64,000 nucleotides of DNA from positions 183,024,001 to 183,088,000 of the forward strand of contig CM097882.1 of NCBI GenBank assembly GCA_044892505.1, given 5' to 3'. Under the pieces are notes generated by a model that was given only the letters and a program-made list of their open reading frames with translations, had not been told where the DNA came from and ran no database searches. Numbering within the stretch: the first letter of the stretch is position 1; every line of letters starts with the position of its first letter. Below are positions 23,530 through 51,408 of this stretch, one piece after another. The position numbers and the translations under genes are program-made. The stretch is from Schmidtea nova. Taxonomy: Eukaryota.

Positions 23530-23715
23530 AAACTGATTAACAAATGTTGAAATTGTGTTAAAATATTAGAGTTCATTAGTGCATTTTTGTTTTGTTGTTT
23601 TGAGTTTTGGTTTTGTGTTTTTAATAGTTCGTATTGTAACCTAATAATCCTATAATCAAATTTTAATTTTTCACATAATTTAATCATAAAGTAAATATCC
23701 TAAATAAATTATAGA

Positions 23716-26433: not shown

Positions 26434-26475
26434 GAGGCCAATGAGCCATATTGAATGACCTAGCTAGGCGTTATG

Positions 26476-27308: not shown

Positions 27309-30300
27309 TTGAGAACAGGAGTAAAGAGTGTCGTAATAAAGCCAACAGAAAAGAAAGTCGGCAGTGAGAGCAATAAAAAAGACAAAACTAGTACTACAAC
27401 AAAAACAACAAAAAAGCAGAAAGCCGGCAAAGATAACAACAAGAACCCACAAGGGAGTAAAGCGAGGAAAATAATAAGAGATAAAGCGATTATCGAAAAC
27501 GATAAATTGTCAGTAGTAAGCAACAGTTCAAGTAACAAAGAAAACCAAGCAGAACCCAAAGAGAGCCAAACAAGTGAAATAGAAGTAGACGAAACTAATA
27601 ACGATAATATAGAAGAATTAGAGAGTGAAGTAGAACAAGAAGTAGAAATCAACGAGAGCGATAACGATAGTATAATATCAGATCACGAAGTAATAAGAGA
27701 AACAGAAAGCGATTCAAGCTCGAGTAAAACGGAAGACGAACATAACAACGAACTAGAAACAAGAGGAAACGAAAGTAAAATAACTCAAGACAGCGGAATT
27801 GAAATGGGTGAACCAAGAGAAGAAATAAAGGATAAATTTTCAGGAGAACCGTTTAACGGAGATGCGAGCAAATTAGAAACCTTTTTAAAAGAATTTGGCA
27901 TATTCGTGGAGGTATGCAAGTGGAAAGCTGAAACAACGGTAAGCAGAATTCAGTTATATTTGAAAGATAGTGCATTGGACCTATATTTGGAAGCGAAAAA
28001 TGGTACCAATCCACCTACAAGCTGGACAGCGATAAAGGATTTTTTCCAACAAACATTTGGAATAAATAAAGTGCTGAGCGAGGCATTCATAGAATTCTCA
28101 ATGAGGAAACAAAAGATGAATGAATCTAATGCGGTATACGCGAGCGAACTGAAAAAATTAGCAAAATCGGTATTCAAGGATGGAGGTCCAATAAACGAGG
28201 AGTTAATGGCAGCCATCTTCATAGGAGGATTAAGAAGACCCGACATAAGAGCACAAGTGGGATGTCAAGGATGCAAAACCATAGATCAAGCGTTAGAAAC
28301 AGCTAACCGATTTGAATTGCATATGATAGGAAGCGAAGGCAGAATTTATTTAGCCATGGACACAGCGCAAACCGAACCAGAAGTAAATCTCAACAATCAT
28401 ATTCCAAATTCGCAACAATTAAACCGACCACCCCCTCAACGAAGGAATGAAGGAAATAAAGTGCAGAACTTTGAAAATCAAAACAATTACAACCCTCAAA
28501 GACAAACAAAACAATGTAAAACATGCGGGAAGTTGGGACACTGGCAGCAAGAATGCTATCAAAATTTGAATTGCGGAAAATGTGGAGTCAAAGGACACTC
28601 GGAAAGCAGATGTTCTACAATAATCTGTTTTAATTGCGGACGACCTGGTCACTATTCAAGAAATTGCGGACAAAAAAGTAATCAACGAGGAAACTGGCAG
28701 AGTAATGGGAACCGACCAAATTACGGAAATCAAGCAAATACCGTAAACCGACCAGATTATGGGAACCAACAAGTCAATAATAACAATAATCAGAACAAAA
28801 CCACCCCCAAAGAAATACATTTAATGCAAGAAGTCCAAAGATTGACGGAACTTATAAACAATACGACGAGAGGAAATCCGCAAACCAATCAACAGCAAAT
28901 TAGCATGATGAGAAAAATAGAAAGCGAAAACGAACGATTGAATCGAGAAAGTCAAGCACGACACGCTCAGGAATGGGCAAGAATACAAAGAGAGGATGAA
29001 CAAAAACAGCAAGAAAGAGAACGACAACCTCTAAGAATTAACATGCTAAGAGCAACAAACCAAACAGACACTCGCGAGAAAGAAACCACACTGGAAATGA
29101 ATTCGATAGACCCGAATCCAGCCGACAACGAAAGTCGAAAAGAAATAGTACAAAAAGATGAAGAAGTAGAAAAAGAAGCAGAAAAGGGAGAGGAAACCGA
29201 GATAAACCAGGAAGAGAGAAGAAAAATTTGGAAAAAAGGAATGATGGTAATCATGCCCAACGACCATATGTTTCGATTCCAATATAACGCAAAAGAAAAG
29301 GTGGAAATACTGTTCAATAAAGTAAACCAGATGATTCCAGGAGTGACAAAACTGCCCAGAGAAGCGTTCTTACAAATAGGAGATGCACCATCAGTAAAAT
29401 TGAAATTAACGGATATATGGGAAAACATGGGAGTAGTAGAAACAAAAAGAAATGTGATGAGAATTAAAGAAATAGAACCAGAAGAAATACCACCACCAAT
29501 ACGTCACGAAACCCGAATCCGGCGAATATTTGAAGGAAAAATGATAAGAAGACGTTTAAAAGAGATAGACGAGTTGGGAAAGAAAATGGAAAAAGTCGAA
29601 GTAATAGAGGACAAGAGTGAACCAACACCAGAAATTGACAAAAACGAACCAGAACCAACGGAGAATATACAAGGAGAAACGAACCAAACAGCACATATTA
29701 ATATGTTAAGAAATACCACCAGAGAGTTTTCCGATGAAGAAGAAGATAGTGATATCAGTAGCCTAGCAGGAGACATATTAAACGAATCCGAAGACGAAAA
29801 TAAAGAGAGAGAAGTAATAAAGACCTCAGAACCTACACAGATAAAAGTAGATGAAATCCAGAAATTACTAGATAACTCGCTAGAAGTAATATATAACGAA
29901 GAGTTCATGGACAAGAAACAATATCGGAAATTCATGAAAGCATTATTACAAATGAACTACAAAGAATGGTTACAAGACCGGGAAGTAGACATGTTGAATC
30001 GATACGTAGGGAAATTAATAGAGGAACCACTTCTCAATTACACCATCTCAATAATAATAAATACATCTACACCAAGAATCTGGATCAAAACTCCATTTAC
30101 AGATGATATCTACAGATGGGTAGAGGACAGACTAGGGAGTTCATATAAAAACAAATTCATCTATTCGCAGAATAGACTCGTAAAGAAAAGAACGCACTTA
30201 GTAGAAACAGGTATATGGCCAGGAGAAATAACCCTATTATCAATATGTGATGAAAAGGAAGAAGAAAACCTACAAGAAGTTGCAAGGGAGGCAAACACGT

Positions 30301-32669: not shown

Positions 32670-32678
32670 GCCAAGAAT

Positions 32679-35600
32679 ATGAAAAAGAAATTCGAAAAAA
32701 TATTGGAAGAGTTAGAAAAAGAACAAGCAGGAACAGGAAACGCAAAGTCATCAATGAATCTGAGTGCCATAATAATGATGATGTTGATTTGGATGATTAG
32801 CACCGATAGCGCAACAGCATTCGAAGTGTTTGATTGCGACCAAATGAAGTTAGGAGAAAAGTATTCATTGAGAGGTACGGAGCAATGCAAAGATGCAACT
32901 CCAGTAGAGTTGCAAAAGATTAAAAAGGAACAATGGTACCACGTGTATCAAGAAGCAGAACTCATAAAGACAATGGTGAATGAATGTAAAGTGCAGAAGA
33001 CGAGATTCGCATTCTACTGCGGGAGAGGACATTATTCAGCAATTGTCATGCCAGGAACGGAAAGAGAACCAATCGTGTTACAAGGAGAAGACTGCGAAGC
33101 ACTGTTTAAACATGGAGAAGTAACAACAAGGGATAAAATCAAGATAAGAGGAAAGCCAGGAATGATGATGCAACAGACGTACTATGTAGCAGGACGGATT
33201 ACGGGAGGAGAAGGATATTGTCAAGGCGAAACCTACCCGATATTCGGAGTACCCGCAACCAACTTAGTGGTGATGGATACGTATATAGTCGAACTAAAAA
33301 GCTACGAAGCATTCTTCGAACCAACAACGGGAGAAATGAAAACGTTATCCATGTGTAAAATCGACAGGAGCATGTGTCAAACGGGAATGTCAACATTAGT
33401 GTACAAACCAAAGGTGAACGAATGTCAATTACAACTGCTACAAGGAGCACAGTTCGACGAAATCCAAGGAAAAACGTTTCAGGAAGAAGACGATGACGAC
33501 AAAGCTAGAGCAAAGCATCTCAAGGAAGCTTTGGAGAATAAAAGACAATTGAAACCGGATCATAGAGAAAAACGGATAGAGATGAGAGCCACACCAACAG
33601 TGTTGATAACCACAAATCAAGATGTGGGAATGAGATTCATAAAAGGGAAAGCAACCCTTAAGTGTAGTACAACGGTATATGAAACGAATTACCCAGGAAT
33701 ATATGTGTCAAAACAAGAAGTGCCAAATGCGAAACCCAAAATCGACACAATGGATATCAAACTACACTTGTATGTGAATAATAAAATGGATTTCCTATTC
33801 CATAGAGGACAAGCCTCATTACAAAAAGTGTATTACGATCTGATCAATAACGATTGTATACTGAATCGAGAAATACTAAAGACAAAATTGGCCGTAGCAA
33901 TTACGAATCCCGATAGCGCGATGCCATTATTACCACTGAGAGAAGGACATTTCGGAAGAGTGGTTGGAGAAGCAATGTATGTATACATCTGCGAAAAGAC
34001 ACACGCATCGCTAGCAGCAACAACACAGTTGAAACCTGGAACCTGTACAAATGAGTTAGAAATCGATTACAAAGGAAAAGTACGATACGTTCAACCGGTG
34101 ACGAGAATCATCAATCCACCAGGGTTTGAACCAAATCCATTCAACTGTAGTAATGCGTATGGACCGCTTTATCAGAAACCAGATGGTAAATGGGTTATGT
34201 TCCCAGGAAGATCCGAAGTGATAGCACCAAGAGAATTCGAGCTAATGCAGTTGTCAAAGGATAGGCAATTCAGCGACGTAGATGTCTCAAACAATGGAAT
34301 ATATAGTCCGAAAGATTTAGAAGCAGCAAGGCAGAATATATTATTCCCAGCAAGAAGAGAAGCATTACTGTCAAATATCGTAACGATAACGGGAGGAACG
34401 GATTATCGAGAAGGACCGAATTATGAACTATTGTTGTCACCAGCACATTTCAAGAAAGCCACAGAAAATATGATGAAAGCAATGTGGGGAAGATTTTTGA
34501 TATTCGGACAAATGATGGCCGGAATACTGGGGGTCATATTAATAATCCAAATCGTCAGAGTGATAATAACGCAAATGCTCGCATGTTTCGATATCTACAA
34601 GAGAGAAAAGAAAGTGAATTGGAAAATGGTAGTAGGGTTTTTACCATTCCTTGCGAAAACGATGGTGTTACACGGGCACTCAAAAGATATCCACCGAATA
34701 AAAAGACTCCTAAAGATATTAGCAAAAATGAAGGGAACAGATGAAGAAGTAGGACGAAAATTTAAAAAGATAATGAATGATGAACAAGCAAGACAACAGC
34801 TCAAGAGAGAAAGAAAAGGTTTATGGGAGAGGATGAAAGGATATAAAACCCAAAATGATTCGAGTGACGACGACGATGACGATGACGACTATAAGGGAGG
34901 ACAGGTGTATAAGAACCAAGCACCACAATACATCGAAAAGAATCCAGCCGACGCATGGAAATGTTACGCACCTCCACCAACAATGTATCAAGAACCACTA
35001 CAAGGAGGAAAAAATAGCACGATGCAAATGATGCCAATGACAAATGTATATCCCATGATACCAGAAGATTATAAAATGAGAAGATGTAGAAGCGTAGATC
35101 CACAAGGGGATACACACACGATCGCAGTAATGTCATCAAACACAGGTCCAGTATTAACCACGACAATAGAGATTAACGGAAGGGAAATCGAAGCAATGAT
35201 CGACACGGGAGCAAACATTTCCGCCATCGACATCAAATGGATACCACAAGAGCAAAGACGAGAAATAGAAAGGACAAACGTCCATGTAATTGCATGTAGC
35301 AAAGAAGTTGTAGAAGTAGCAGGAAGATGGTGGGTAAAAATACGCCATTTAAACACGGAAATCGATACGTACGTAGCTGTCATACCAGCATTAAGCGTAC
35401 CTTGCATTATCGGAACAGATTTGATGCCAGCACTATTTAAAGAGATTGTAATCGATCTTGGAACAATGAGACTAAAAGATCGCACCGGACAAATATGCGC
35501 AATAGAAGCCAAAGTGACAAGTTCAAAGCAAATGATAATACCCGCAAGAAAGGAAAAAATATGTTATGTAAAAATAGATCCAACAATCCAAGGGGATATG

Positions 35601-38600
35601 ATTTTCGAACCAAGTAAGAGATTCGAGAAAAGAAAAGCGTTGCCAATGGCAAGAGGACTAGTTAACATAAACGATGATGGAGAAATCCCAATAAACGTAG
35701 TAAACTTCGATGAAGAGGACAAAATAATATACGAAAACGAAAGATTAGGTAAATTAACCCCAATGATGGATATCGAACTACCAATAGAAGGAGCAGAGAA
35801 AGATAAAGAACCAACCTGGAATATTGATAGTGAATTATTAAACGAGGATCAAAAGAAGCAGTTAGAAAAACTTTTGATGGAGTATAAGGATATATTTGCA
35901 GCATCCGATTTGGATCTAGGAACATGTGATGTCACACTACATACAATACCATTAACAGATGAAACACCAATTGCATTAAGGCCGTACAAATTAGCGGAAG
36001 CACAGAAAGCAGTAGCAGAAGCAGAAGTGAAGAAAATGTTGGATGCAGAAGTAATCGAACCAAGTTGTTCACCCTGGCAATTTCCAGTGGTAATGGTAAA
36101 GAAAAAAGACGGAACACAGAGATTCTGCATAGACTATCGAAGATTGAATACAGTGACAAAAAGGGATACTTACCCATTACCAGACATTAATGAAATGCTA
36201 TTAACATTACAAGGAGCAGCATATTTTACGTCGTTAGATCTGAAAAGCGGATATTGGCAAATAAAAATGAAGGAAGAAGATAAGGTGAAAACTGCCTTTA
36301 CCATCGGGAGAGATTTATATCAATTTCGAAAAATGCCATTTGGATTAACGAACGCACCAGCATCATTTCAGAGATGCATGAATTTCGTCACCCGTGGAAT
36401 AAAGCAGTGTATGGTCTACATAGACGACTTATTAATTTATTCTAGCACGTTTGAACAACACATACAGGATATTCGAGATGTATTCGTTAGGCTTAGACAA
36501 TGGAAGTTAAAACTCAAGCCATCAAAATGCGATTGGGCAAAAGAAAAGGTTACATTTTTAGGACATATAGTGTCAGCAAAAGGAAAAGAACCGGATCCCA
36601 GAAATATCGACAAAGTAAAAGAATGCCCAGTACCAAAAACAATAACCCAAATACAAGAATTTCTCGGACTATGTGGATACTATAGAAAGTTTATAAAAGA
36701 TTACGCTGGAATCGCAAAGCCTATACAGGAACTGGTAAAGAAAGATGTATCATTCATATGGGGAGATGAACAACAAACAGCCTTTGAAACATTGAGAGAT
36801 AAACTGATAACCGCACCCATATTAGTACACCCAGACTTTAAGAAGCCATTCTTACTTGCAACGGATGCAAGCGGATATGCAGCAGGAGCCGTATTAGGAC
36901 AATACGACGACGAAGGAAAAGAACGGGTAATCGGATATTATAGCCGAACATTCAAAAAGCACGAGAAAAATTACTCAGTAACAGAACGGGAAGCATTAGC
37001 AATTATATTAGCTATTAAACACTTTAAATATTTACTATGGGGTCACATCATTTGCATAACAACAGATCACCAACCGCTTGTATGGTTAGGACAGCACAAG
37101 GAAACATCCAGTAGATTAATGCGATGGGCAATGCAGTTACAGGAGTACTCACCAGACATAAAATTTAAATCAGGAAAAGCGAATGCGAATGCAGATTGTA
37201 TGTCAAGACTGACATTTCCGGAATTAACCGATCCTGATGTACAACGAATTTGTGTGTTAATAGCGGAAGATTTAGATTTTAGTGAGTTAAAGAAAGATCA
37301 ACAGGAAGACAAAGAATTGGGACAGATCATAGAGTTCCTAACGTCTCGAAATATGGAGGTATTTAAGGATAATAAGGAATTAAAGGAACATATAGGAAAA
37401 TATCAACATCGCTACATAATAAATAAAGGATGGTTGTTAATACAAGACGGGGAAAAGAGATTGATGTGTTTACCGGAAAACAGAAGGAAAGAGATAATGA
37501 TCAAATACCATGATGGGAAATTGGGAGGTCATATGTCCGAGAAAAAGACCATAAATCGTATGAGACAAAAATATTATTGGCGAACAATGGAAGAAGATAT
37601 AAAGGAATGGATTAAAAATTGTCTAACTTGCGCAACCAGAAAGGATAGTGGGAAGAAATGGAAGAACCCGCTACAACCAATGCCGATACCAGCAGAGCCA
37701 ATGACAACTATAGCAATGGACGTAATAGGACCACTACCAGAAAGTTTAAACGGAAATATTTATATATTGGTAATAACGGATTATCTGACAAAATTCCCGG
37801 AAGCATTTGCCATGCAAGATCAAAAAGCAAAAACCGTAGCAAAAATTTTGGTAGAAGAAATATGTTGCAGATACGGAACTCCAAAACAAATACTCACAGA
37901 CCAAGGAACTAATTTTATGAGTGAGTTATTGAACGAGGTGACAAACTATTTCAGAATAGCAAAATTGAGAACTTCACCATATCACCCGCAAACGAATGGA
38001 CAAACAGAGAGATTCAACGGTACATTGATTAGAATGTTATCAAATTACGTCAGCAGACACCAAACTGATTGGGACGAATACATAAAATTATGTTTAATGG
38101 CATACCGAATGTCGATACATGCAGCAACAAAACTAAGCCCATTTCAACTTATGTATGGAAGAGAATGCAACATGCCCATAGATTTAGAGTATCAGCCACC
38201 ATTATCACAATATATGGAAGACGACGACTACGTAACCAAATTCAAAGAAAGAATGCAGGAAATATGGAAAACGGCAGAACTCAACATTAAATTTTATCAG
38301 GAAAGTTATAAGGACTTACACGACCAGAAGAAAAATGTTAAAGCGAACGATCTAAAACCAGGAGATTGGGTGATAATAGAAACTCCCGAAATAATACCAG
38401 GAACAGTTAAGAAACTCCAAAGACCTGGAAGAGGACCTTATGAAATTATATACAAAAAGGACAATAATGTCAAAGTTAAGCTAATAAATCGACCGTTAAT
38501 ACGACCCATATATGTAAACACCTGCAGATGTAAGAAGGTGCCTAAAACGATAACTACAACACCAGAAAATCGAATAATAACTAGATCACAAACAGCCAGG

Positions 38601-41600
38601 ATAAATATGCTCAGAGCTAATGTAACTGAAGACGACAAAGCAGAAATAAGGCAAAAAGAAATCAGAAACAAAGAGATCATATTGAAGGCGAGAGAAATAA
38701 TGGGAAGATGGCATGTTAGAGACGAAGCAGGCATATCAAGGGATATTAGACATATGATTAGCCGTTACGCACAAGGATTACCAACCGAACCAATTATTTC
38801 TGAATTATTGGAAAAAATCCCTGAAATACTCTTATTGAAAGATGTAGGAGGACAACCAGCCTTACATAATGCGATAGAGTGTAAAAACATTGAAAGAGCA
38901 AAAGAATTCCTAAAAATCGCAAAAGAAACAAACCAAAACTTGGACGTAGGGAATCGGGAACAAGAAACTCCATTAATGACAGCCGCAATCCACCAAGCAG
39001 ATAAAGAAATGATAGACCTATTGATAAAAGCTCATTTCAGTTGGACAGAACGAGATAGAGAGGACAAAACAGTGCTAAATCACGTAATATGGAGTTCTCA
39101 CCAACCAATGCTGAAATACATAATAGCTAACTCCACTTGGGAGATAGACGAACTAGTTAAAGGAGACATTATCAAAGAGGCAATCAAAATTGGTAAATGC
39201 AACACGATCCGTAAGTTAATCAAATGGAAACGACCAGAAGATGATACATGGGTCTTAGACATAAACGAAGTATACAGCGAAGGACAAAACGCACTGTTAA
39301 GATACCTTTTGAAATTTACTTGTGATCAGAAGACATTACTAACCTTATTAGACAGAGGAAACATAAACATCACAAAGAATGAAGAAGAATACAAATTCGA
39401 TAAAGAGAAGGAAGCCTTATTCAACAAGATTAGGAAATGGTGTGCGAAACCACTTGATAAACTAATAACATACAAAGACATAAACAATTTTAACGAGAAA
39501 TACCAGACGATAGTAAGCGAATATGAGGAATTAGTAAAAATCTTAAACCATCCCGAAAAATGCAAACAGGTTTTAGAGAAAAAAGAAAGAGAAAGTAACA
39601 AGAAACTCACACCACTCTTCAAAGCAGAAGCACCATACCAAGCTAGACTAGATGCGATACAAGAAAAAGCAAAAGAATTGTTACCGGAATTCGAGAATAG
39701 TAAACATGCACTGGAAATACTCGGCGCATTAGTTGAAAAAGTACACGCATACGCAAAAGGAACATACAATGGTAACGACATAGTAATAATAAAAAAGGAA
39801 ATGCCAGTAACATTCCTATTACCAAAAGACGGAATAATGCCCATACATAGAGCTCTACGAAATGGCAAAGATAGGAAAGTAATGGAAATTGCAAGAGTAA
39901 TGCTAAATTGCGGAAGCAATATGAATATGATAGACGAGAAAGGAGATACACTTATGGTATTTGCAGCAAGGGCCAAAACGAAAACAAAGGTATTAGAAGA
40001 ACTATACAAAGCAGGTGCAGGACTTACAGGAAAGACAGATAAAGATAATTCGATATTAGATGTAGCATTATTAACACACAATTGGGAAATGGTCAATTTC
40101 ATTAAAACCGTCCCAAATCAGGAAGAAATAGATCACCTAACTGATACGGTCAAGAAACCCAGTGTACTAGCAATGATGAACAACGTCGAACTAACAGAAT
40201 CAATACTTACGTGGATAAATCCTAATACTAACGAACCAGCATTCAGGATTAATAAATTTACAGAACATAACCAAAACTGGTGTATAAGAAGTGCCTTAAT
40301 AACGTATAAATGGCCAGAGATATTGAAGATGTTTATGGAAAGAAAGGATCTAAGAATCACAACCAGCCCGAAAGAAGAAAAATACACAGGCAAATGGAAA
40401 GAATTGATGAAGACATACATCAACAATTGGATCAAGGCCAAAAAGGAAATCTTGGAATATAAATCCACTAACAAAGTAATACCGGAGCAGGTAGAAACAC
40501 AAGAATTTGAGGCAAGCAATCTAACGACATTAGCATATGCAAAATTAATAGAAGAAATCAATGTCGAGGACGACATTTTCGACGAGCCAGGGGGAGATGA
40601 CAACACAGATAGTGACGACGATAACAACTCAGAAAATTCAAGCGATCACGAACCACCCGATAAAGAGGAAAACGAGAGAAAAGACAAGAAACGAGACAAG
40701 GAAGGAAAGAAAGGTGAAGACGAAAAACAAAGAGATGAAGAGAGAGAACAAGGAACAAACGACCAAGGAGATAAAAATGACACCCAAAGAACAGGTTATA
40801 AATCAACTATAAAACCATTCTTCAGACCAGAGTTACTATTATTAACAGTGATTTTAACGTTAATTAATCCAAGTCAAGGAATGACATGTGAAGAAAGGGC
40901 AATAATACAAATAAAAAACGCAAAAGGAATCGAACGAGTATGTTGGTCGAAAAAGGACAAAATCACGGAACAAAATAGCCCGATGGATTGCAGAATCTCA
41001 GAACACGAGCAAGAAATCATAGAGATCAACGACCTAGATCTAGATACCTGGTACAAAATATGCACCGTTAGGAAACAAAAGCATCCAAGATCACACAACA
41101 CAATCGCATGTGCAAAATACCAAACACCTAAAGCAGCCATGACAATACAACAGTCACCCAAAGGAGATTACATCCTCGGAAAATGTGGAAGAACAGAGAC
41201 ACAGGGAACAGAAAACAAAAAACCCCAGGCAATAGATAAGCAAACAACACCAACCCTACGAATTACAATAAAGAGGCCCGAAACAAGAATTGCCACAAAC
41301 GAAACCGAAAGAGTGTCTTACCAAATGGAAGTATTATGCTTAGCACTCATACTAATAATAATAAAACGATTAGAGGAAGGAATAGAAATTGAAACTATGA
41401 CAATAACAGAAGTAGAAGATACACAGAATACTAACATAAAATGTTGGGCGAGGAATAACGAGGAAATCGGCGTAAATGAAATAAGGAAAAGTCGAAAACC
41501 AACAACGAATAAAGTAATTAAAGTATCCAAAGTAAAAGCAGATAAGACGTACAAACTATGCCTACTAGAAAAAGAGACAAACAAGAAAGGTACCACAAAA

Positions 41601-44282
41601 TGTAAAACATTCCAACCTGGAGAAGTAATAAAGTTCAGAAGGAGAACGAGGAAGAGAAATAAACAAATCAAACAGAAAGTAAACATAACATTAGAAATAA
41701 AAGAGATAGAACCAAATGTGAAAGGAGTATGCTGGAGGAAGTACGAAAAAGAAACGAATGAAAGAAAGACACCACAATGTCGAACAAACACAGGAACAAC
41801 GACAATTCAAATAAAAGGTTTAGAAAGTAAACAAACCTACGAAATATGTTTAGTAAAGAAAAATGATCAGATAACGATAAACGACCTAGAATGCGGAATA
41901 TACACCACTTCATCCGGAACAAGAACTAAAACGTTAACACGAAAAAATAAAAGAAGACAACGAAACAAAGGGAAACCGAAGTACACCACTACCTTTAAAA
42001 ACAATAAACAACCGATAAGCCAAGAAGTTACGACAAAACCCGAGAAAAAGACATCAGCAACTCTGACATTATGGAAAATAGAGAATAAAACATTGGAGAT
42101 ATGTTGGATAATAGTCCAGAAACATATAAGAAGACAATCAAGAGAGTGCAGAAAAACAAATAAAGAAATCAAGATCGAAAAACTACAATTTAATAGCGAG
42201 TACGAAGTATGTACAATAGAAAAAACGGACGCACTAGGAAACCAACAAGAAAGATGCGAAACCTACTATACACCAGCGAACGCAACATCAAAAGGAATAA
42301 CAAGGAAACTCGAATTCAGGGAACTAAGCCAAACGAATGAACAAATGGACGTAGAAAAAACAATAACCGACCCTCAAGCAAAATGGACACCCGAAGAAGT
42401 TATCAAGGAAGTCAAAAGAAAGCAAGAGGAACGGGAACAATTAATGAGAAAACTAAAGGGACAATACGGAATAATGTTCAACCAAAGCGAATCTATACAA
42501 ACAGACGAGAATAAAGAAATTAAAGAACTAATTGGCTTAGGAATATTAACAGCGACCATACCAGTAATAATCGCGTTATCAGCTATATGGATACGCAAGA
42601 TAAACCCAAAGAAATCGGTAACCCAATGGACAAATAGAGACAGTACAAGCCATGGAGTGGAAATGCTAGAAGAAGAAGCACGAGAAGAACCAAAAAAGAA
42701 AGAAGCAAAAAGCGGAAAACTAGGAATAAACAACAAAGACAAGAAAATAAAAGAGATTAAAGGAGAAGAGAAAAAATATGAAAGGCGAACCAGAAGCCTA
42801 CCGCAGAGTTCAACATGGTTGAGTCTAACAATAATATTGACATTAATTAATAGGGAAGAAGCAATAAACCCACAGACAGGGATAAAAGTAATAAATGTCC
42901 AGGAAGTCGAGAAAATATGTTGGTATAGAGAAGATGAACCAATTGGAGAAAATAACCCACTAAAATGCATAATCAGAAAATCCGACCAGGATATCGTACG
43001 AATAGAAGAAATGGATGGAGGAACCATGCATCGGATATGCATAATAGAAAAGGAAAAGAAGTCGGGACTACCTAAGACAGTCGTATGCCAGAAATATGAA
43101 ACGCCTAGACTTGAATGGTATAGAGTAAAACCAACAAAGAAAGAAATCAAAAACACAATAGATCAACCAGCAACTCAGATAAGAAACACAACGGATAAAC
43201 CAGGAGAAGGAGAGAAAAGCACCAATAAAACGAGAGAAAGAATATCACCCCAACAGGAGTGCGTATGCATAGCATTAATAATAGCAATGTCCAAACGTAT
43301 CAATAAAGGAATAACAATAGAACAAATGGCCATGACAATAAGGAGAAAAGGCCGGAGTAGCAACAAAATATGCTGGGGATGGTACAACGAACAAAAAGAA
43401 TACCAAGTTCAGACAAGCGACGAATCACGAACAAACAAGGAAACCGAAATACAAGAAATACAAATGGACGGAGAAGGAAGTATATGTATATGGGAGAAAG
43501 GAATCCAAGAAGATCAACCCGGAATAGAAAAGTGCAAGACATTCCAAAAAGGAGAAATTCTGAAATTCGATGAAAAAGAATTAACCAAAACAGAAAGAAC
43601 TCTGACATTAACAGGACTTGATCAGACAGTGAAAGGAATATGTTGGACAAAACATAACCCAGAAGGAGAGGAAGGTAACCTAACCCACTGTAAAGAAACA
43701 GGGAATAAGGAAAAAGTCGAATTAAAGAAAATGGAAGTAAATAAGACATACGCGATATGTACCTTCACTAGAAAAGGTTCAGAAAAACCAGAATGCGGAT
43801 TATATCAGATCTCAGAGAAACTACAACAACAGATCAAACCATTAAACGTGGAAAACCGAACAAAAGAAAATAACGTCAAACAACTACTAAATCGCCATTG
43901 GTCTACACAAGAAGTAATGAACAAAGTCAAGAATCAAGTACAGAAGGAGAAGAAGCCAGAGGCTCAAACCCAAAATGAGATAAAAGCGAATCAGAATAAA
44001 ATCAAAGCAACAAACCGTGGAAAAACAGTAATAGGATTAATCAGTATAGGAATATTAATAGCATATGGGATAATGACGACAAGCATAATAGTATATTGGA
44101 GATACAGAAAGAGAAACAAAGCGACAGCCATACAATGGCCAGATATTAAAATTATGAAGCAAAGAATAGAAATACCAGAAGAGATACAGCAAGAATTCCA
44201 AAGAAGAACGAAAGGTAACGAATTCTGGAAACAAAGAGAAGACGAAGAACGATACGAGGAAAAGACGATAATGATGGTATAG
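32679..44282 (+). CDS. pol: Env-Pol-cargo polyprotein (3867 aa): signal peptide, chuvirus-like glycoprotein with TM, PR, RT, RNase H, integrase, ankyrin repeats, two FN3-like membrane modules
   Basis: MIDTGAN (35202), VYIDDLL (36417), ATDASG / NYSVTEREALA / TDHQPL, HDGKLGGH..CLTC, MDVIG..TDQGTNF..TERFNGTL, GPY. Ankyrin motifs GQPALHNA, ETPLMTA and GIMPIHRA. Confidence 0.95.
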   Translation: MKKKFEKILEELEKEQAGTGNAKSSMNLSAIIMMMLIWMISTDSATAFEVFDCDQMKLGEKYSLRGTEQCKDATPVELQKIKKEQWYHVYQEAELIKTMVNECKVQKTRFAFYCGRGHYSAIVMPGTEREPIVLQGEDCEALFKHGEVTTRDKIKIRGKPGMMMQQTYYVAGRITGGEGYCQGETYPIFGVPATNLVVMDTYIVELKSYEAFFEPTTGEMKTLSMCKIDRSMCQTGMSTLVYKPKVNECQLQLLQGAQFDEIQGKTFQEEDDDDKARAKHLKEALENKRQLKPDHREKRIEMRATPTVLITTNQDVGMRFIKGKATLKCSTTVYETNYPGIYVSKQEVPNAKPKIDTMDIKLHLYVNNKMDFLFHRGQASLQKVYYDLINNDCILNREILKTKLAVAITNPDSAMPLLPLREGHFGRVVGEAMYVYICEKTHASLAATTQLKPGTCTNELEIDYKGKVRYVQPVTRIINPPGFEPNPFNCSNAYGPLYQKPDGKWVMFPGRSEVIAPREFELMQLSKDRQFSDVDVSNNGIYSPKDLEAARQNILFPARREALLSNIVTITGGTDYREGPNYELLLSPAHFKKATENMMKAMWGRFLIFGQMMAGILGVILIIQIVRVIITQMLACFDIYKREKKVNWKMVVGFLPFLAKTMVLHGHSKDIHRIKRLLKILAKMKGTDEEVGRKFKKIMNDEQARQQLKRERKGLWERMKGYKTQNDSSDDDDDDDDYKGGQVYKNQAPQYIEKNPADAWKCYAPPPTMYQEPLQGGKNSTMQMMPMTNVYPMIPEDYKMRRCRSVDPQGDTHTIAVMSSNTGPVLTTTIEINGREIEAMIDTGANISAIDIKWIPQEQRREIERTNVHVIACSKEVVEVAGRWWVKIRHLNTEIDTYVAVIPALSVPCIIGTDLMPALFKEIVIDLGTMRLKDRTGQICAIEAKVTSSKQMIIPARKEKICYVKIDPTIQGDMIFEPSKRFEKRKALPMARGLVNINDDGEIPINVVNFDEEDKIIYENERLGKLTPMMDIELPIEGAEKDKEPTWNIDSELLNEDQKKQLEKLLMEYKDIFAASDLDLGTCDVTLHTIPLTDETPIALRPYKLAEAQKAVAEAEVKKMLDAEVIEPSCSPWQFPVVMVKKKDGTQRFCIDYRRLNTVTKRDTYPLPDINEMLLTLQGAAYFTSLDLKSGYWQIKMKEEDKVKTAFTIGRDLYQFRKMPFGLTNAPASFQRCMNFVTRGIKQCMVYIDDLLIYSSTFEQHIQDIRDVFVRLRQWKLKLKPSKCDWAKEKVTFLGHIVSAKGKEPDPRNIDKVKECPVPKTITQIQEFLGLCGYYRKFIKDYAGIAKPIQELVKKDVSFIWGDEQQTAFETLRDKLITAPILVHPDFKKPFLLATDASGYAAGAVLGQYDDEGKERVIGYYSRTFKKHEKNYSVTEREALAIILAIKHFKYLLWGHIICITTDHQPLVWLGQHKETSSRLMRWAMQLQEYSPDIKFKSGKANANADCMSRLTFPELTDPDVQRICVLIAEDLDFSELKKDQQEDKELGQIIEFLTSRNMEVFKDNKELKEHIGKYQHRYIINKGWLLIQDGEKRLMCLPENRRKEIMIKYHDGKLGGHMSEKKTINRMRQKYYWRTMEEDIKEWIKNCLTCATRKDSGKKWKNPLQPMPIPAEPMTTIAMDVIGPLPESLNGNIYILVITDYLTKFPEAFAMQDQKAKTVAKILVEEICCRYGTPKQILTDQGTNFMSELLNEVTNYFRIAKLRTSPYHPQTNGQTERFNGTLIRMLSNYVSRHQTDWDEYIKLCLMAYRMSIHAATKLSPFQLMYGRECNMPIDLEYQPPLSQYMEDDDYVTKFKERMQEIWKTAELNIKFYQESYKDLHDQKKNVKANDLKPGDWVIIETPEIIPGTVKKLQRPGRGPYEIIYKKDNNVKVKLINRPLIRPIYVNTCRCKKVPKTITTTPENRIITRSQTARINMLRANVTEDDKAEIRQKEIRNKEIILKAREIMGRWHVRDEAGISRDIRHMISRYAQGLPTEPIISELLEKIPEILLLKDVGGQPALHNAIECKNIERAKEFLKIAKETNQNLDVGNREQETPLMTAAIHQADKEMIDLLIKAHFSWTERDREDKTVLNHVIWSSHQPMLKYIIANSTWEIDELVKGDIIKEAIKIGKCNTIRKLIKWKRPEDDTWVLDINEVYSEGQNALLRYLLKFTCDQKTLLTLLDRGNINITKNEEEYKFDKEKEALFNKIRKWCAKPLDKLITYKDINNFNEKYQTIVSEYEELVKILNHPEKCKQVLEKKERESNKKLTPLFKAEAPYQARLDAIQEKAKELLPEFENSKHALEILGALVEKVHAYAKGTYNGNDIVIIKKEMPVTFLLPKDGIMPIHRALRNGKDRKVMEIARVMLNCGSNMNMIDEKGDTLMVFAARAKTKTKVLEELYKAGAGLTGKTDKDNSILDVALLTHNWEMVNFIKTVPNQEEIDHLTDTVKKPSVLAMMNNVELTESILTWINPNTNEPAFRINKFTEHNQNWCIRSALITYKWPEILKMFMERKDLRITTSPKEEKYTGKWKELMKTYINNWIKAKKEILEYKSTNKVIPEQVETQEFEASNLTTLAYAKLIEEINVEDDIFDEPGGDDNTDSDDDNNSENSSDHEPPDKEENERKDKKRDKEGKKGEDEKQRDEEREQGTNDQGDKNDTQRTGYKSTIKPFFRPELLLLTVILTLINPSQGMTCEERAIIQIKNAKGIERVCWSKKDKITEQNSPMDCRISEHEQEIIEINDLDLDTWYKICTVRKQKHPRSHNTIACAKYQTPKAAMTIQQSPKGDYILGKCGRTETQGTENKKPQAIDKQTTPTLRITIKRPETRIATNETERVSYQMEVLCLALILIIIKRLEEGIEIETMTITEVEDTQNTNIKCWARNNEEIGVNEIRKSRKPTTNKVIKVSKVKADKTYKLCLLEKETNKKGTTKCKTFQPGEVIKFRRRTRKRNKQIKQKVNITLEIKEIEPNVKGVCWRKYEKETNERKTPQCRTNTGTTTIQIKGLESKQTYEICLVKKNDQITINDLECGIYTTSSGTRTKTLTRKNKRRQRNKGKPKYTTTFKNNKQPISQEVTTKPEKKTSATLTLWKIENKTLEICWIIVQKHIRRQSRECRKTNKEIKIEKLQFNSEYEVCTIEKTDALGNQQERCETYYTPANATSKGITRKLEFRELSQTNEQMDVEKTITDPQAKWTPEEVIKEVKRKQEEREQLMRKLKGQYGIMFNQSESIQTDENKEIKELIGLGILTATIPVIIALSAIWIRKINPKKSVTQWTNRDSTSHGVEMLEEEAREEPKKKEAKSGKLGINNKDKKIKEIKGEEKKYERRTRSLPQSSTWLSLTIILTLINREEAINPQTGIKVINVQEVEKICWYREDEPIGENNPLKCIIRKSDQDIVRIEEMDGGTMHRICIIEKEKKSGLPKTVVCQKYETPRLEWYRVKPTKKEIKNTIDQPATQIRNTTDKPGEGEKSTNKTRERISPQQECVCIALIIAMSKRINKGITIEQMAMTIRRKGRSSNKICWGWYNEQKEYQVQTSDESRTNKETEIQEIQMDGEGSICIWEKGIQEDQPGIEKCKTFQKGEILKFDEKELTKTERTLTLTGLDQTVKGICWTKHNPEGEEGNLTHCKETGNKEKVELKKMEVNKTYAICTFTRKGSEKPECGLYQISEKLQQQIKPLNVENRTKENNVKQLLNRHWSTQEVMNKVKNQVQKEKKPEAQTQNEIKANQNKIKATNRGKTVIGLISIGILIAYGIMTTSIIVYWRYRKRNKATAIQWPDIKIMKQRIEIPEEIQQEFQRRTKGNEFWKQREDEERYEEKTIMMV

Positions 44283-44406: not shown

Positions 44407-44763
44407 ATGACCGAACAGGACGAAACAACTGAAATAACTATGGCTATGAGATGGAAGGCACAATGTGATTTATTAGTACGAACAGTCAACTCATTACAGA
44501 ACCAATTAGCGGAAAGACAAATGTTATTATCAGAGAGTTATAACAATTGTTTCGAACAATTACACAGAATAGAGGAACAACAAAGAGTGATAACTGAACT
44601 CACCAGAGAAAATCAAACGATAAGCAACACCAATCAAAGACAAGCAATAGAAATAAACCATTTAACACGAGGAGAAAGAGAAGGATCCGAAGAAGGATGG
44701 ATGAGTTGGGTAATAAATAGATTAAACAGCGAAGCGGAACCAGATTCAACGAATGAGCCATAG
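44407..44763 (+). CDS. Small coiled-coil protein (118 aa)
   Basis: Heptad-rich LVRTVNSLQNQLAERQ...LHRIEEQQRVITELTRENQ; TTTAG|AA-ATG context. Confidence 0.65.
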   Translation: MTEQDETTEITMAMRWKAQCDLLVRTVNSLQNQLAERQMLLSESYNNCFEQLHRIEEQQRVITELTRENQTISNTNQRQAIEINHLTRGEREGSEEGWMSWVINRLNSEAEPDSTNEP

Positions 44764-44856
44764 ATAAATAAAGCGGAAAACTGTAAATATGTAAAAATAA
44801 AAACAAGAAAAATCAAAAAATGAATGACAAGTCGAATGTATATATTATTGTAGAAA

Positions 44857-46233
44857 ATGGACAGAGAAGAACGAATCATCGAAATTTTGAGATTAGAAAA
44901 CAGAAAATGGAGTAAGAGGCTCACATGCGGGAAGTGTAACAATTTATTACGAGAACCCAGACAAACGATATGTGGATGTAGAATATGTACAAAATGTATA
45001 CAAGAATTGGATGCAACAGGAATAACAACATGCCCAGAATGTAAAGAAGGAGGAATAGTGTTGGACGAAACCAGAACGGACAAAGCAACCCAAAGAGAAA
45101 TTATGAGCACCACAACGGAGTGCGTAAATACACCTTGTACATGGCAAGGACAAATAAGTAATCTAGAAAACCATATGGAAAAATGCGAAGAAAAGAGAGC
45201 CGAATGCGAGAAGTGCCAACAGACAATAATTCTAAAGAAGAGAGAACAACACAAGGAAGAATGTAAAGAAGAAGAAATCGCATGCGAGTATTGTGAAGCC
45301 CGAGAAACAAGGAGAAAAATCGAAGAGGAACACTTGAATATAACAGAGGAGAAAGTATGCAGACAATATGTAAGTAAATGTCCAAACAATTGCGAAATAA
45401 CAGAAGAAGTAAAGTTACATGAACATTGGAAAGTATGTACCGAAAGACCAAGAGAATGTCCATATAACAAACAGGGATGCAAAGAAAAGCGGACGCGGCA
45501 ATCAATGAAACAACACCTAGAAGAAGCAGCACTAACGCATGTGGAAATGTCAAACGAAACGACAAAAGGAACGGAACAGACAATCCAGAAATTAGAAAAA
45601 GAAGTAGAATCACATAAGATAATGATGAGTTTACTACTAGAAACAAGAGAGCAGTTTGAACTAACTCGCGAAAAAATGGAAAAGAAAATAATAGCCATAG
45701 AAGAATTAGGAAAAGGAATGAAAATACAATATAATCAATTAATACGAGAAATTGACGAAAGAAGGGACTTACCAATCGCACCTTACCTATGGAAAGTAAC
45801 AGATTTCAGAGACAAACTAGCAGAAGCCAGAAATATGACGAAAACAGCAGTAATAAGCCCACCATTTTATTTATGGAAAAACGGGGTTAAAATAAGATTG
45901 AAAGTATACCCAAATGGAGACGGAAGAGGACAAGGAACACACGTGTCAATATTCTTCTCACTATGTAAAGGAGAATACGATGACCTAATAGAATGGCCCT
46001 TGAAAGTAGGAGTCATTATAAGAATCAAAAGTATGGGAAAACCAGTAGAAAAGTTCTTTGAAACAGATAAACATACCAGTACGAGCGAAAAACCCACAAC
46101 AGAATGCGGACTAGCAGCAGGAGAACCAATGTTTATAAGGAAAGAAAACCTATGGGAGCGACTATATGCAGACACGCTATACATAGAGATGGAGAGGCAT
46201 GAGAAAACAGACAGAAAAGGATGGTTGGCGTAA
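44857..46233 (+). CDS. TRAF-family protein (RING, TRAF zinc fingers, coiled coil, MATH)
   Basis: RING CGKCNNLLREPRQTICGCRICTKC..CPEC; CVNTPCTWQGQISNLENHMEKC; MATH WKVTDF..ISPPFY..RLKVYPNGDGRGQGTHVSIFFSLCKGEYDDLIEWP. Confidence 0.95.
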   Translation: MDREERIIEILRLENRKWSKRLTCGKCNNLLREPRQTICGCRICTKCIQELDATGITTCPECKEGGIVLDETRTDKATQREIMSTTTECVNTPCTWQGQISNLENHMEKCEEKRAECEKCQQTIILKKREQHKEECKEEEIACEYCEARETRRKIEEEHLNITEEKVCRQYVSKCPNNCEITEEVKLHEHWKVCTERPRECPYNKQGCKEKRTRQSMKQHLEEAALTHVEMSNETTKGTEQTIQKLEKEVESHKIMMSLLLETREQFELTREKMEKKIIAIEELGKGMKIQYNQLIREIDERRDLPIAPYLWKVTDFRDKLAEARNMTKTAVISPPFYLWKNGVKIRLKVYPNGDGRGQGTHVSIFFSLCKGEYDDLIEWPLKVGVIIRIKSMGKPVEKFFETDKHTSTSEKPTTECGLAAGEPMFIRKENLWERLYADTLYIEMERHEKTDRKGWLA

Positions 46234-46346: not shown

Positions 46347-47408
46347 ATGGGAAATATAGAAGTAACCTTACAAGAAGTAACAGTACATCAAGACGAAATG
46401 ATCAGAAATCACATGGAGCGGATTGGGATATGGATTCATGCCTATTATCGAAAACAGGAGGAATTGGAAAGACAAACCCAAGCACTAAGAGAAGCCGAGA
46501 AAACGAATCAAAGAAGTCGAGAAAAAATAGAAGAAGTCTACAAACTACTAAGACAACAAAACGAATACTACAAAGAGATGATGAAAGAGCGACGAGAGGA
46601 TAGGGATAGACAACAAATAAAAACAGACCATAAGATTCAGTCAATCACAGAACAATCAAGATATTGGAAGAAAGAGGCAAAAGACTCTTATAAGGAAGCA
46701 AGGGAGATAATAGAACGAACAGCGTACAGCGATGATTGGAAACTGTTTAAAGAGATCGATGAATTAAAAGAGGAATTAGGGCAAAAGATCAGTCAAGAAG
46801 CGTCAAATAAAGTATGGAGTAAGAAAAGACAACAATTTATCAGAGAACAAGCCAAGAAAATAAAAGAATTAACTTATCAAGTACAAAGAATGGGAGAAGA
46901 TTTAGCCAATCAAGAACAATTAAAAGGTATGCTGACCGGAATGTGGAATCACAAAGAAGAAAACATGAAAAGAGATATAAATGGATATCAAGGAGTGATC
47001 ACCCAGAAGAAAATAGAATTAAAAAGAACTAAAGAAAGACTGGAAGAAACGAGGCAGAGTTATGAAGAGAACATAACAAATTTGACAAAAGAAAACGAAG
47101 AACTGAGAAAGAAGTTGGCAGAAAAACCAACGCCAATAAAAGAAACAAGTATCACAGCAGCAGTGACCGAAATGATGGAGAAAGAAGAGAGAGAGAAAAG
47201 ATTAATGGAACTAGAAAGACAAATTGAAACCCTTACAGAACAAGCAAACTATTTGGAATACTTGTTAGACGAAGAGATCCAAATATCCCACACATACCGA
47301 GAAGAAGTCGAAATGTGGAGGAGCACGGTAATATGGATGCCACTCCCCATAAATCAGGTGGAACCTCAAGACGAAGGTTTTCACGAACCCAACGAAACCC
47401 TTGTATAA
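46347..47408 (+). CDS. Long coiled-coil protein (353 aa)
   Basis: E/K/Q/R-rich heptads throughout; no other motif recognised; TTATAG|AA-ATG context. Confidence 0.75.
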   Translation: MGNIEVTLQEVTVHQDEMIRNHMERIGIWIHAYYRKQEELERQTQALREAEKTNQRSREKIEEVYKLLRQQNEYYKEMMKERREDRDRQQIKTDHKIQSITEQSRYWKKEAKDSYKEAREIIERTAYSDDWKLFKEIDELKEELGQKISQEASNKVWSKKRQQFIREQAKKIKELTYQVQRMGEDLANQEQLKGMLTGMWNHKEENMKRDINGYQGVITQKKIELKRTKERLEETRQSYEENITNLTKENEELRKKLAEKPTPIKETSITAAVTEMMEKEEREKRLMELERQIETLTEQANYLEYLLDEEIQISHTYREEVEMWRSTVIWMPLPINQVEPQDEGFHEPNETLV

Positions 47409-47483: not shown

Positions 47484-48053
47484 ATGAGAAAGCTCGCAAT
47501 AACAACACTCCTATGGTTAACAACCATTACCCTACAGAGAGAAGATCTACAACTAACCGAAACCCAATTACGAGTGCTACCCGACAAAATCTACCAGAAA
47601 GTAGACATACTAATCGAAGAAGTACTTAGAGAAATCAACGAATTCCGACAGAAATACCCTCACAATCAAGATCATCAAATCCAACAAATCTTCGATAACC
47701 AACAACTGAAACTAGAAGAAACCCGAAAAATTCTGAAAGAAGGTAGAGAACCCATAAAAAGCCTATCCCAAGCTGAAATAGAATATCAAGAGAAATGGAT
47801 CATAGCAATCATCATAATCCTAGCAGTCAGCACAACTATCATCGCAATCACAATCCTAATTGCCTCATATAGAATAAAAATCCTAAAACAAAAGCAGAAA
47901 ATCTACAACCAAACCTCCAGACGAGATAACCGATCTCAAAGACAAATAAGGAGCCATCTCAATCACATTCAAACCCACTACGAGCTACAAATGATCAACG
48001 AGAGGACCCGAACCCAACCCCAAGCGAGCCAGACGATCGAACAAATTGTATAA
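47484..48053 (+). CDS. Putative type-I membrane protein (signal peptide, helical ectodomain, TM, basic tail)
   Basis: The track start 47451 is GTG; ATG 47484 gives MRKLAITTLLWLTTITLQ. TM WIIAIIIILAVSTTIIAITILIASY followed by RIKILKQKQK. Confidence 0.7.
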   Translation: MRKLAITTLLWLTTITLQREDLQLTETQLRVLPDKIYQKVDILIEEVLREINEFRQKYPHNQDHQIQQIFDNQQLKLEETRKILKEGREPIKSLSQAEIEYQEKWIIAIIIILAVSTTIIAITILIASYRIKILKQKQKIYNQTSRRDNRSQRQIRSHLNHIQTHYELQMINERTRTQPQASQTIEQIV

Positions 48054-48256: not shown

Positions 48257-51200
48257 TGTTGGGCCCGCCAAATCACCTAAAAAACACAAGGAACGAACAA
48301 AAGCATGAAACAATAAAGAAATAATAAAAATAAAAATAGCAAGAAAAACAAATTAAAAATAACAATAAAACGACAAATAATAATTAATAAATTTTCAGTA
48401 AAAGGAAATTTTGAAATAAACCGGTAAACAACCGCAAAGGGGGGCCTGAAATAAGAAAAAATAGAATTAAATAAAATAATAGTGCAAATAATTAATTAAT
48501 TACTTGGAAAATCAGGACCACCCAGCGAGAAACCGGAAAAGGAAACAAAATAATGTTTAGATTAGATTAAAATAATAAAAATACTTTGAAGGACGGTCTG
48601 ATCCTGATTGGTCAATCCAACCAGACGGATCAGTATAAATACCGATCCAAAAATCACAGACTTAGACGTTTACTTTTCACTCACAATCAAGACTAAACTT
48701 TGATTTGAGTAAATTTTTGAAAAAACCGAATTTCATGCAAGGAACCACACATTCAAGTACGGAAGTAATTTTTTATGTTATCTTATATGATGTACCCATG
48801 ATTTTTATTTAATTAAAATCTTATATGTAAACGTTATTTGATCTTATTTTTCCTTTTTGATATTTTAATGCATATAGTTATACTTCCTATGCTGCTCACG
48901 CGGCGAGGGAGTCCGAGTCGTCGTTGTGGGGCCTCACGGTCTCACATGGCGGTTCAACCTTTTTATTGTTTTGGTTTTCATATTTAATTTGGTAGTTGAA
49001 ATAATTAAATTACATCATTCGAATTTAACTAGATATTTATCAGCGAGATTAGAGAATTTTAATGCTTATTTAGTCGAGTAAAATTTTCAGTCACGAAATA
49101 TCGATAATGCGAATACGTCCAGACAGTTTTCTGGCAATAAGTAAAAAAGTCATCATTTGGTTGTACAGGGGACGTAGCGCAGCGGGCGGTAGAGAAGGTC
49201 TAAGGAGATACCAAGAGGGGGTAAAGTACCCGATAGGTGTCAGGTACCCGAGACAAATGGGTTGACACGCTGAGGTTAAATTTGAGGACGAGAGAGCAGG
49301 TATAGCATGACAAGTTATAAAAACTTTCCAAGTAAATCGATCAAACTGATGAATTTCAATTGAGGTCAAGGTACAGGATATCGCAACTGCATGACAGAGA
49401 TTAGTAAGACTGAAAATCATAAATTCTAAAAATACTTTAAATTCCAGTCTAATAAAACTAAAAATCTGTAATTCTAAAAATACTTTTATGCCGATCGCTG
49501 TACATAGCGCGGTAGCTCAAAATAATCTTATCCTGATCGTCGTACATGGCGCAGGGAAACAAATATCTTATCCGACCGTGGTATATCGCGGTGATGGTTT
49601 AAAAATGAGATGGTATTAACTAAAAGGATTGAGATTAAATAGAATTTACATTTAACTCTTTATTAAATAAAATGACAGATGCTGACATCGTTGAACGAAA
49701 GATTAACGCGGATTCGGAACTCAGGAAAGGAGGACAGGGCGAATGAATGGGCAAATCAGCTCAAGGAGTTGCCCCAGCCAATTCTGCGGACCATTAATGC
49801 CCAAGCATACAAGTGGCGGCAAGGGTTTGGTCGAAAGTGCCCGTTTTCCATCTGGGACGGAGGAAACGATATAATACTCTATCGAGGAGGACCGAACTGG
49901 CCGATTTCTCAAAGGCCGTACTCAAACAAATTTGGCCGACTTGTCGTACTGATCAAGGACACAGATGGACGGACAAGCCGTGTAATTTATTGGGGGCATA
50001 TCCCTCGTCGGGAACTATGCCAACTAGGTCTACACGAATTCCTACCGCGAAAACCGTTCGGCAAGGAGTGCCAGAAGGGACAACCCTCATTCTCTTGGGC
50101 TCGTCTTCGTCAGAAACCGATTAACAGCGAATTGCATAGTTTGTTTCGGAGATGAAAACTGATTAACAAATGTTGAAATTGTGTTAAAATATTAGAGTTC
50201 ATTAGTGCATTTTTGTTTTGTTGTTTTGAGTTTTGGTTTTGTGTTTTTAATAGTTCGTATTGTAACCTAATAATCCTATAATCAAATTTTAATTTTTCAC
50301 ATAATTTAATCATAAAGTAAATATCCTAAATAAATTATAGAATGACCACCGATTTGATACAGAGAGAATTGGAAAAGATGTGGCGGATCCGGAGAGCCCA
50401 GGACAAAGAATTGGGTCTCCTCAAGGCACAATTGATCAAAGCAGAGGCACAGATCGCATACTTGCGCAAAAGCTGGTTTGCTCCGGCCCGAATGAAGGAG
50501 CAAATCAGTAAAACCGAGCGCGCCCAACAGACTGCAGCCGATTACCAAATGGAATGGGAGGCCACAAGGATAGAACTCCGAAAATGCCTCCATTCCGTAA
50601 CTGCCTCATATATTGAGAAAGAGCTCAGAGAGCAAATCCGTCCGGTTACGTACCAAGCGTGGACATCAGAAAAGAAGACGGTAAATTCGATTGGCACGGA
50701 TGTCGCCGATCTAATCGAAAGTCGGAATGAGACAGCTCCTGCAGCAAATGCAACCACCTCATCGGCGAATGCGCACCAGAAACGCAAGCGCATTGGGCAG
50801 AAACGGCGAAGACAGAGGAAATTATTTGCCCAGCAATTACAAAGCCAAGTAGATGGTCTACATCAGATGACCGAGGAGGCATTATTGACGGAGATTTTCC
50901 CTCCGGCTGGAGTTTTTTTCGGAATTGATGAAAACTTAAATAAAATTTTCGTGTTAATTTAAAATTGTTATCGTTCTTTTAAATGGATTTAATTAACTTT
51001 ACAAATGATTAGATAAAGATAGAATAAAAGTATAAACTCATTTTACAAAATACCTAATAGAGATAAATAAATAATTAAACGAGCATTTGTTGAAATACTT
51101 CTTGCAGAATGAGAGAGGTTAAAGATAAATTTACTGAAAGATATTGCGGAACACCCAAATAGATGATTAAAGCATAAGTCCTTCTAACGGCAGCGATGAA

Positions 51201-51408
51201 CCCGTAAACATAAATGGGGAGTAGTACTAGCGATAGTGCTCACCTGCCCATCATTGTTTAACCACCCTGCGCATCACCAACTTGGTTATACAGGGAAATA
51301 ATCAAGGGCGCTTGAGTGTAGAATTGCAATTTTGTGCATGATCATGGATGAGGGAATCCCTAGTCATTGTTAGAGCATTTTTCATCTAACCCCTCCATGA
51401 ACCCAGCA
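48257..51408 (+). repeat. 3' LTR (3152 bp)
   Basis: Colinear copy of 21631-24782, followed by TSD ATAG. Confidence 0.97.

Follow-up and report, generated by a model that had tools for sequence, protein, structure and literature searches.

The window analysed here, a stretch of 64,000 nucleotides from Schmidtea nova, carries on its plus strand an uninterrupted open reading frame (ORF) of 458 amino acids (ATG at 44857, TAA ending at 46233) that codes for a full-length TRAF, as judged from the ORF itself, Pfam, AlphaFold2, Foldseek and structure alignment. It comprises a RING of the all-cysteine C-G-C variety (aa 24–62; 44926..45042), recognized in an alignment that includes TRAF structures; five zinc-finger units (aa 89–228; 45121..45540), placed by Pfam and by the ligand pattern in the sequence, with C175 and C179 among the ligands; a coiled coil or TRAF-N helix (aa 225–301; 45529..45759), delimited on the structure model; and a MATH or TRAF-C domain (aa 310–445; 45784..46191), identified by Pfam and alignment. 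The preliminary description of this DNA had stated that all TRAF modules lie in a single uninterrupted ORF, and this is the case.

Pfam detects MATH_2 (E 6e-21, aa 310–445), TRAF-mep_MATH (E 3e-19) and zf-TRAF (E 1e-7, above the cut-off); the RING models match aa 24–62 weakly and under the cut-off (E 0.02–0.03), and aa 21–148 align with the RING–zinc-finger structures of TRAF6, TRAF2 and TRAF5 (E 7e-14 to 2e-11). The AlphaFold2 model, built on an alignment of 23 rows, has a mean pLDDT of 88 and forms one helix (225–301) followed by the MATH sandwich; its top Foldseek matches are the TRAF domains of TRAF1/2/3/5 (E 6e-17).

All eight RING ligands are present with TRAF spacing, Cys standing in place of His, and there is no TRAF2-type insertion after the RING. 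Two of the element families described below, A and B, have Lys between the first two RING Cys, a usually hydrophobic position, and Arg, Lys or Gln is found at the site of the Phe in the FPD of TRAF6. In TRAF6, these positions have roles in E2 binding and RING dimerization. Some triclad host TRAFs have the same RING changes. In the alignment, the peptide-binding groove of the MATH domain differs from that of host TRAFs (HTSTSEKP and LAAGEP in the element, ARSACYQKP and IASGSP in the host) and also varies between element families.

A giant Burro-type LTR element carries the TRAF gene

The TRAF gene lies inside an LTR element of 29,778 bp (21631–51408) with a 4-bp ATAG target duplication. Comparison of its LTRs (5′ LTR, 21631..24782; 3′ LTR, 48257..51408; both on the plus strand, like all features of the element given here) shows that they are 3,152 bp each, have TG...CA ends and differ by one mismatch. 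Both contain a 206-aa ORF (23716–24336 and 50342–50962) preceded by the same splice-acceptor-like word as that of the TRAF, and the 5′ LTR is followed by a stretch (24789–24806) that we take to be similar to a primer-binding site, of the kind of the tRNA-Pro site of retroviruses.

The internal part begins with a 153-aa ORF that combines a coiled coil and an IAP-type RING (25113..25574) and in which domain searches found no BIR, followed by arrays in which units of 29 bp and 32 bp are repeated in tandem (25964–26729). The polyprotein, delimited by ORF and Pfam analysis, consists of a Gag part with zinc knuckles (27276..32669) and a 3,870-aa part (32670..44282) containing, in this order, Env (Monjiviricetes fusion), PR, RT, RNase H, IN, ankyrins and a membrane-protein tail. 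The in-frame stop that separates Gag from Env (32667–32669) is private to the window copy; since it is absent from 20/20 sister copies, the family has a single Gag–Env–PR–RT–RNase H–IN polyprotein. A putative BCL2-like domain before env had no Pfam or PDB sequence match, and an all-helical model of it reached a pLDDT of 45. The polyprotein tail (40800–44282) consists of repeated beta-rich units with several hydrophobic stretches, fibronectin-III-like by eye, and had no Pfam match at E 0.5.

The TRAF gene is the second of four accessory ORFs that follow this tail. On its 5′ side lies a 118-aa ORF (44407..44763), which also has the acceptor-like word before its ATG, occurs in four families and gave only weak unnamed matches in an atlas search. 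On its 3′ side are a conserved 353-aa coiled-coil ORF (46347..47408), likewise present in four families, and a 189-aa ORF with hydrophobic stretches (47484..48053), a membrane protein by eye. The coiled-coil ORF ends in ETLV, ESLV, ETDV or ETIV across the four families (47340–47408 in the window; L132, L052 and L130 elsewhere), presumably a class I PDZ-binding-like end, and the QDEGFHE just ahead of it resembles, as we read it, a beta-TrCP degron.

The element has the characters of Burro elements: a length of about 30 kb, kilobase LTRs with TG...CA ends, a target duplication, env between gag and pol, and ankyrin and MATH cargo. A BIR-containing IAP is the exception, as only an IAP-type RING is present, and we therefore assign the element to a Burro-type family distinct from Burro1 itself. 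The A-rich codon bias noted in the preliminary description was confirmed by comparison within the element and with the host: A occupies 0.73 of four-fold sites in the TRAF, 0.64 in pol and 0.25–0.41 in host TRAF ORFs, and all eight element TRAFs prefer the codon usage of the element pol, as all 12 host TRAF ORFs prefer that of the host.

Elsewhere, the window contains a second, small gypsy element on the minus strand (53363–58392), which has open gag and pol frames, 305-bp LTRs that do not differ from each other and a GTGCG duplication of 5 bp; a hAT-like transposase split across two frames (12650–14168); and, at 26–711, pieces about 79–85% similar to the LTR of the large element, on the opposite strand. 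No tRNA genes were found in the window. A family-C TRAF word occurs 7 kb before the window start.

A splice-acceptor-like word precedes the TRAF ATG

Directly before the TRAF ATG stands TTGTAG followed by one to three A (44845..44856, plus strand), a word that resembles a splice acceptor and to which we ascribe this function tentatively. It was found before the TRAF ATG at 9/9 loci from four families, and its AG is unchanged in all 39 family-A copies. The pattern, defined after the sites had been seen, matches 5 of 631 element ATGs, all of them starts of accessory ORFs. This suggests that the accessory ORFs, including the TRAF, are made from spliced or trans-spliced subgenomic RNAs.

TRAF genes are carried by four element families

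An exact 22-base word of the family-A TRAF, the family of the window copy, occurs 103 times in the genome (control, 0), and an exact word of the family-A integrase 141 times. Three further families encode a whole TRAF flanked by the same neighbouring ORFs: family C (70% amino acid identity; 98 exact-word matches), family B (52%; 118 matches) and family D (43%; some ten close copies of full length). Amino acid identity in the four families spans 43–71%. Counts by exact words are lower bounds on copy number and include broken copies; in total, more than 300 element TRAF copies are present genome-wide. The candidate counts of 565, 582, 552 and 629 were rejected as copy numbers, as no more than about a dozen of the 629 candidates of family D were close matches. 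In a fifth family, which is Burro1-like, a MATH domain without a RING lies inside a 4,706-aa polyprotein. TRAF copies 71–77% identical in DNA to family D (C1:126281183, C1:429549226 and C1:121147828) possibly belong to further element families.

Thus, the element TRAF is multi-copy, as had been surmised, and the possibility that it exists only as a single recent copy is excluded by its occurrence at the same position in four families. It is also stable within the element. On C1, 66 of 72 family-A integrase sites are followed downstream by a TRAF: 53 had one among the listed matches, and 13 of the other 19, all of which were fetched, carry one as well. The six TRAF-less sites comprise five broken off or interrupted copies and one large deletion, so that no clean loss of the TRAF was found among the 72 sites. 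All 39 fetched family-A TRAF copies are located in element sequence, and one of them has a stop codon in the TRAF.

The element TRAF is under purifying selection

The TRAF of the element families is under purifying selection on its RING, zinc fingers and MATH domain. Among 39 family-A copies (the 40 best DNA matches minus the window copy), shared variants comprise 67 synonymous and 34 non-synonymous changes (dN/dS 0.19, p 8e-16); within families the copies are best-scoring matches, and those of family C came from a zinc-finger search, so that these samples lean to intact sequence; even singleton variants give 0.42–0.49 (0.49 among the 39 copies). By domain, family-A dN/dS is 0.08 for MATH, the most constrained, 0.18 for the RING, 0.26 for the fingers and 0.47 for the coiled coil, which taken alone (4 synonymous, 5 non-synonymous, p 0.21) is under no significant constraint. 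Values for other parts of the same family are 0.02 for the integrase, 0.17 for the ankyrin region and 0.40 for the tail.

Under a codon model, pairwise omega of the TRAF reaches 0.08 in the comparison with a subfamily of 94% identity; for family C, at a dS of 3–4, it is 0.05–0.06. Between lineages, dN/dS of the RING and zinc fingers is about 0.11; domain-level comparisons between families with saturated dS were left out. The dN/dS check proposed beforehand therefore speaks for constraint both among copies (0.19) and between lineages (0.05–0.08).

Thirteen family-C copies share one common junction that deletes RT, RNase H and IN, and their TRAF remains constrained (32 synonymous, 25 non-synonymous, 0.29, p 4e-6), although some of these variants are older than the deletion, and selected alleles could have been brought in by recombination with autonomous copies. 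In-frame deletion lineages without RT, RNase H and integrase have spread in families C (L132–L148) and D (L130–L131); they retain env, protease and all accessory ORFs, with a recurring RINM(L/M)R word after the junction.

Element TRAFs fall within the planarian TRAF radiation

The relationship of the element TRAFs to host paralogues was analysed by FastTree on 138 rows and by a more careful tree on 39 of these. The TRAFs of families A–D form one clade (100/99) inside a triclad TRAF clade (100/99), from which mollusc, brachiopod, sponge, shark, Macrostomum and TRAF4-like rows are excluded; the phylogeny thus places them within the planarian TRAF radiation. Cys at the C-G-C site of the RING is found in 8/8 element rows, 8/12 host rows and 16 of the 118 database rows (His in 75). 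The closest named TRAFs are those of Dendrocoelum and Dugesia. No donor or sister gene was found among the sampled host loci, and a grouping of the element TRAFs with L015/P0025 was weakly rejected (p-AU 0.03).

In MATH-only trees (44 and 28 rows), the Burro1-like MATH joins the element TRAFs (98/94; 95/89 under a mixture model), and so do the unnamed proteins P0030, P0047 and P0161. The latter are without the K/E/R/T-rich composition of the element and could be cellular genes from a different flatworm; for this reason, one capture and two are both compatible with the trees. In an env/PR tree, D and E are resolved outside and A, B and C branch without resolution, a topology compatible with co-divergence of the element and its TRAF.

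The earlier proposal of an old capture and long residence agrees with the divergence of the four families, the saturation of dS, the element-like codon usage and the purifying selection. The same proposal took the lack of introns as a sign that a spliced host mRNA had been captured, and this part did not stand. In eight of the 12 host TRAF ORFs that were examined, a single frame spans the protein from RING to MATH; as the nearest host TRAFs are thus single-frame too, the absence of introns says nothing on the capture route. RNA-mediated capture is nevertheless the default for a retroelement. On C2 (about 403–455 Mb), host TRAF/MATH genes form a large cluster in tandem that is a separate clade from the element TRAFs; at 6/6 loci examined there, RING and MATH are in separate frames, apparently in two exons. 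The checked host TRAF loci are free of Burro gag and pol within about 10 kb on either side; small Burro fragments occur near them, and unrelated gypsy pol pieces lie beside L019 and L030.

It had also been suggested that such elements could inflate the apparent host TRAF family. For raw genome counts this is correct: the more than 300 element copies compare with about 73 host-type matches among 150 scored MATH matches, judged by position and score (34 inspected) and mostly from the C2 cluster. The host expansion itself is real and independent of the elements. In S. mediterranea it was described from transcripts (PMC6109357), and the accessible text of PMC6109357 and PMC7586133 draws no link between planarian TRAF expansion and elements.

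Relation to known systems

Burro1–4/GYPSM1, as described in PMC6431247, share with the element reported here a size of about 30 kb, long LTRs, an env placed in frame between gag and pol, and cargo that includes ankyrins, an IAP-type part and a TRAF-type MATH. According to that source, MATH_TRAF_C lies within the polyprotein in S. mediterranea and in a separate upstream accessory ORF in D. tigrina, the domain make-up of which is not given there. Here, in contrast, a free-standing RING-to-MATH gene follows pol as one of four accessory ORFs in series, and no BIR was found in the IAP-type ORF. MATH/TRAF cargo in Burro is therefore already known, and the whole, selected TRAF gene would be the addition. 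No account of a full-length TRAF in Burro, of its selection or of its copy number was found in the literature outside supplements, which may cover it; PMC8532177 and PMC13238120 add little.

The triclad host TRAFs compared (Dendrocoelum lacteum TRAF-2, -4 and -5, Dugesia japonica TRAF2-like A, and the host loci L011, L015, L016, L017, L030 and L049) have the same architecture, the C-G-C RING, a long third finger and single-frame coding, and join the element TRAFs in the 100/99 clade; the element TRAF differs by its 25–30% identity to them, its A-rich codons, the altered groove and its dispersed, multi-copy state in LTR elements. Vertebrate TRAF2/3/5, the best matches among solved structures, also have a RING, five fingers, a coiled coil and MATH, but the RING His ligand is Cys in the element TRAF, the TRAF2-type insertion is missing and there is no one-to-one orthology.

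The earlier remark that viruses usually recruit host TRAFs through short motifs rather than encode one was overstated. The megalocytivirus ISKNV, a DNA virus of fish, is likewise a mobile element with a host-derived TRAF of its own, the 296-aa ORF111L, which comes from fish and is pro-apoptotic via TRADD (PMC3352826), and MATH/TRAF cargo of Burro has been published (PMC6431247). By its description ORF111L is an independent capture. A search for relatives in viral contigs gave 125 pattern matches and one for the sequence around P0030 in contigs from metagenomes gave 98, none of which was confirmed.

Possible function of the element TRAF

Four giant Burro-type families thus hold the whole TRAF as a fixed accessory gene under selection, an ancient capture from the planarian TRAF radiation. 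We consider it probable, if only narrowly so, that it works as a scaffold-type adaptor, probably with its own spliced RNA, that acts in pro-survival signalling. According to this proposal, its RNA would be spliced at the acceptor before its ATG, and the protein would oligomerize through its coiled coil and MATH domain. It would act as a scaffold in the manner of TRAF3 or TRAF2 rather than as a strong ubiquitin ligase and bias the TRAF signalling of the host in favour of the survival of element-carrying cells, and the outcome, together with the IAP-type RING and ankyrin cargo of the element, would be pro-survival or anti-inflammatory. As all modules are kept under selection, the element TRAF appears to matter as a folded TRAF; the Lys in the RING and the lack of the FPD Phe make a scaffold like TRAF3 or TRAF2 more likely than a TRAF6-like ligase.

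The direction of the proposed effect is drawn by analogy. Cell death is reported to rise on knock-down of planarian TRAF (PMC7586133), planarian traf2-1 to restrain TAK1/p38 tissue degeneration (PMC4993586) and the Burro1 IAP to protect stem cells, the last according to a second-hand citation in PMC13465017. The induction of apoptosis by ISKNV ORF111L, the one tested viral TRAF (PMC3352826), counts against a pro-survival role. The smedwi-2 phenotype is reported not to have been relieved by RNAi against BURRO1 (PMC8532177), which says little on the TRAF. Because the groove differs from that of host TRAFs and among families, the MATH domain may have ligands other than host receptors.

The diverged groove and the altered RING positions could also be understood if the element TRAF were a decoy that poisons host TRAF trimers or blocks receptors and silences an antiviral response without signalling of its own. 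We regard this as unlikely, since a pure decoy would not need the RING and fingers that selection maintains (0.18 and 0.26 in family A, about 0.11 between lineages) and some triclad host TRAFs have the same RING changes. The retention of all eight RING ligands, the absence of the TRAF2-type insertion and the strong constraint on MATH would suit an active E3 ligase for which the substrate is a host restriction factor held in the altered groove; however, the usual E2 contact is non-hydrophobic in two of the four families and the Burro1-type family retains MATH without a RING, which leaves this reading distinctly improbable. Slightly more doubtful still is a private adaptor for membrane proteins of the element, a self-contained receptor–TRAF–IAP module following an LMP1-like logic with the TRAF supplied: several predicted membrane proteins lie beside the TRAF in a block that is syntenic in four families, but no PxQxT/S/D or PxExx-aromatic/acidic motif was found in the accessory ORFs or past the end of the integrase–ankyrin part.

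That the TRAF is a passive recent capture or neutral passenger has next to no probability. The window copy is very young, with one LTR mismatch, and carries a private polyprotein stop, as a passenger might; but the selection tests refute this reading, with dN/dS far below 1, as do the presence in four families, saturated dS and full codon amelioration. The favoured proposal of a selected scaffold adaptor might be extended, in a version that we hold to be quite unlikely, to a self-contained death-receptor-type kit of membrane proteins, whole TRAF and IAP-type RING made from separate spliced RNAs, with the planarian now relying on the pro-survival dose from hundreds of dispersed TRAF copies and the Burro1 MATH being a remnant of the same capture. 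If true, reliance of the host on a dispersed TRAF dose would explain retention of the gene in the RT-less lineages.

The absence of introns is no sign of retroposition here, and element copies dominate any genome-level count of TRAF genes in animals of this kind. An interference of Burro elements with apoptosis and ubiquitination, as suggested in the literature, can now be tied to a discrete, selected gene and thereby becomes testable. As three of the families each have about 100 copies that are nearly identical, a few RNAi constructs could silence their TRAFs.
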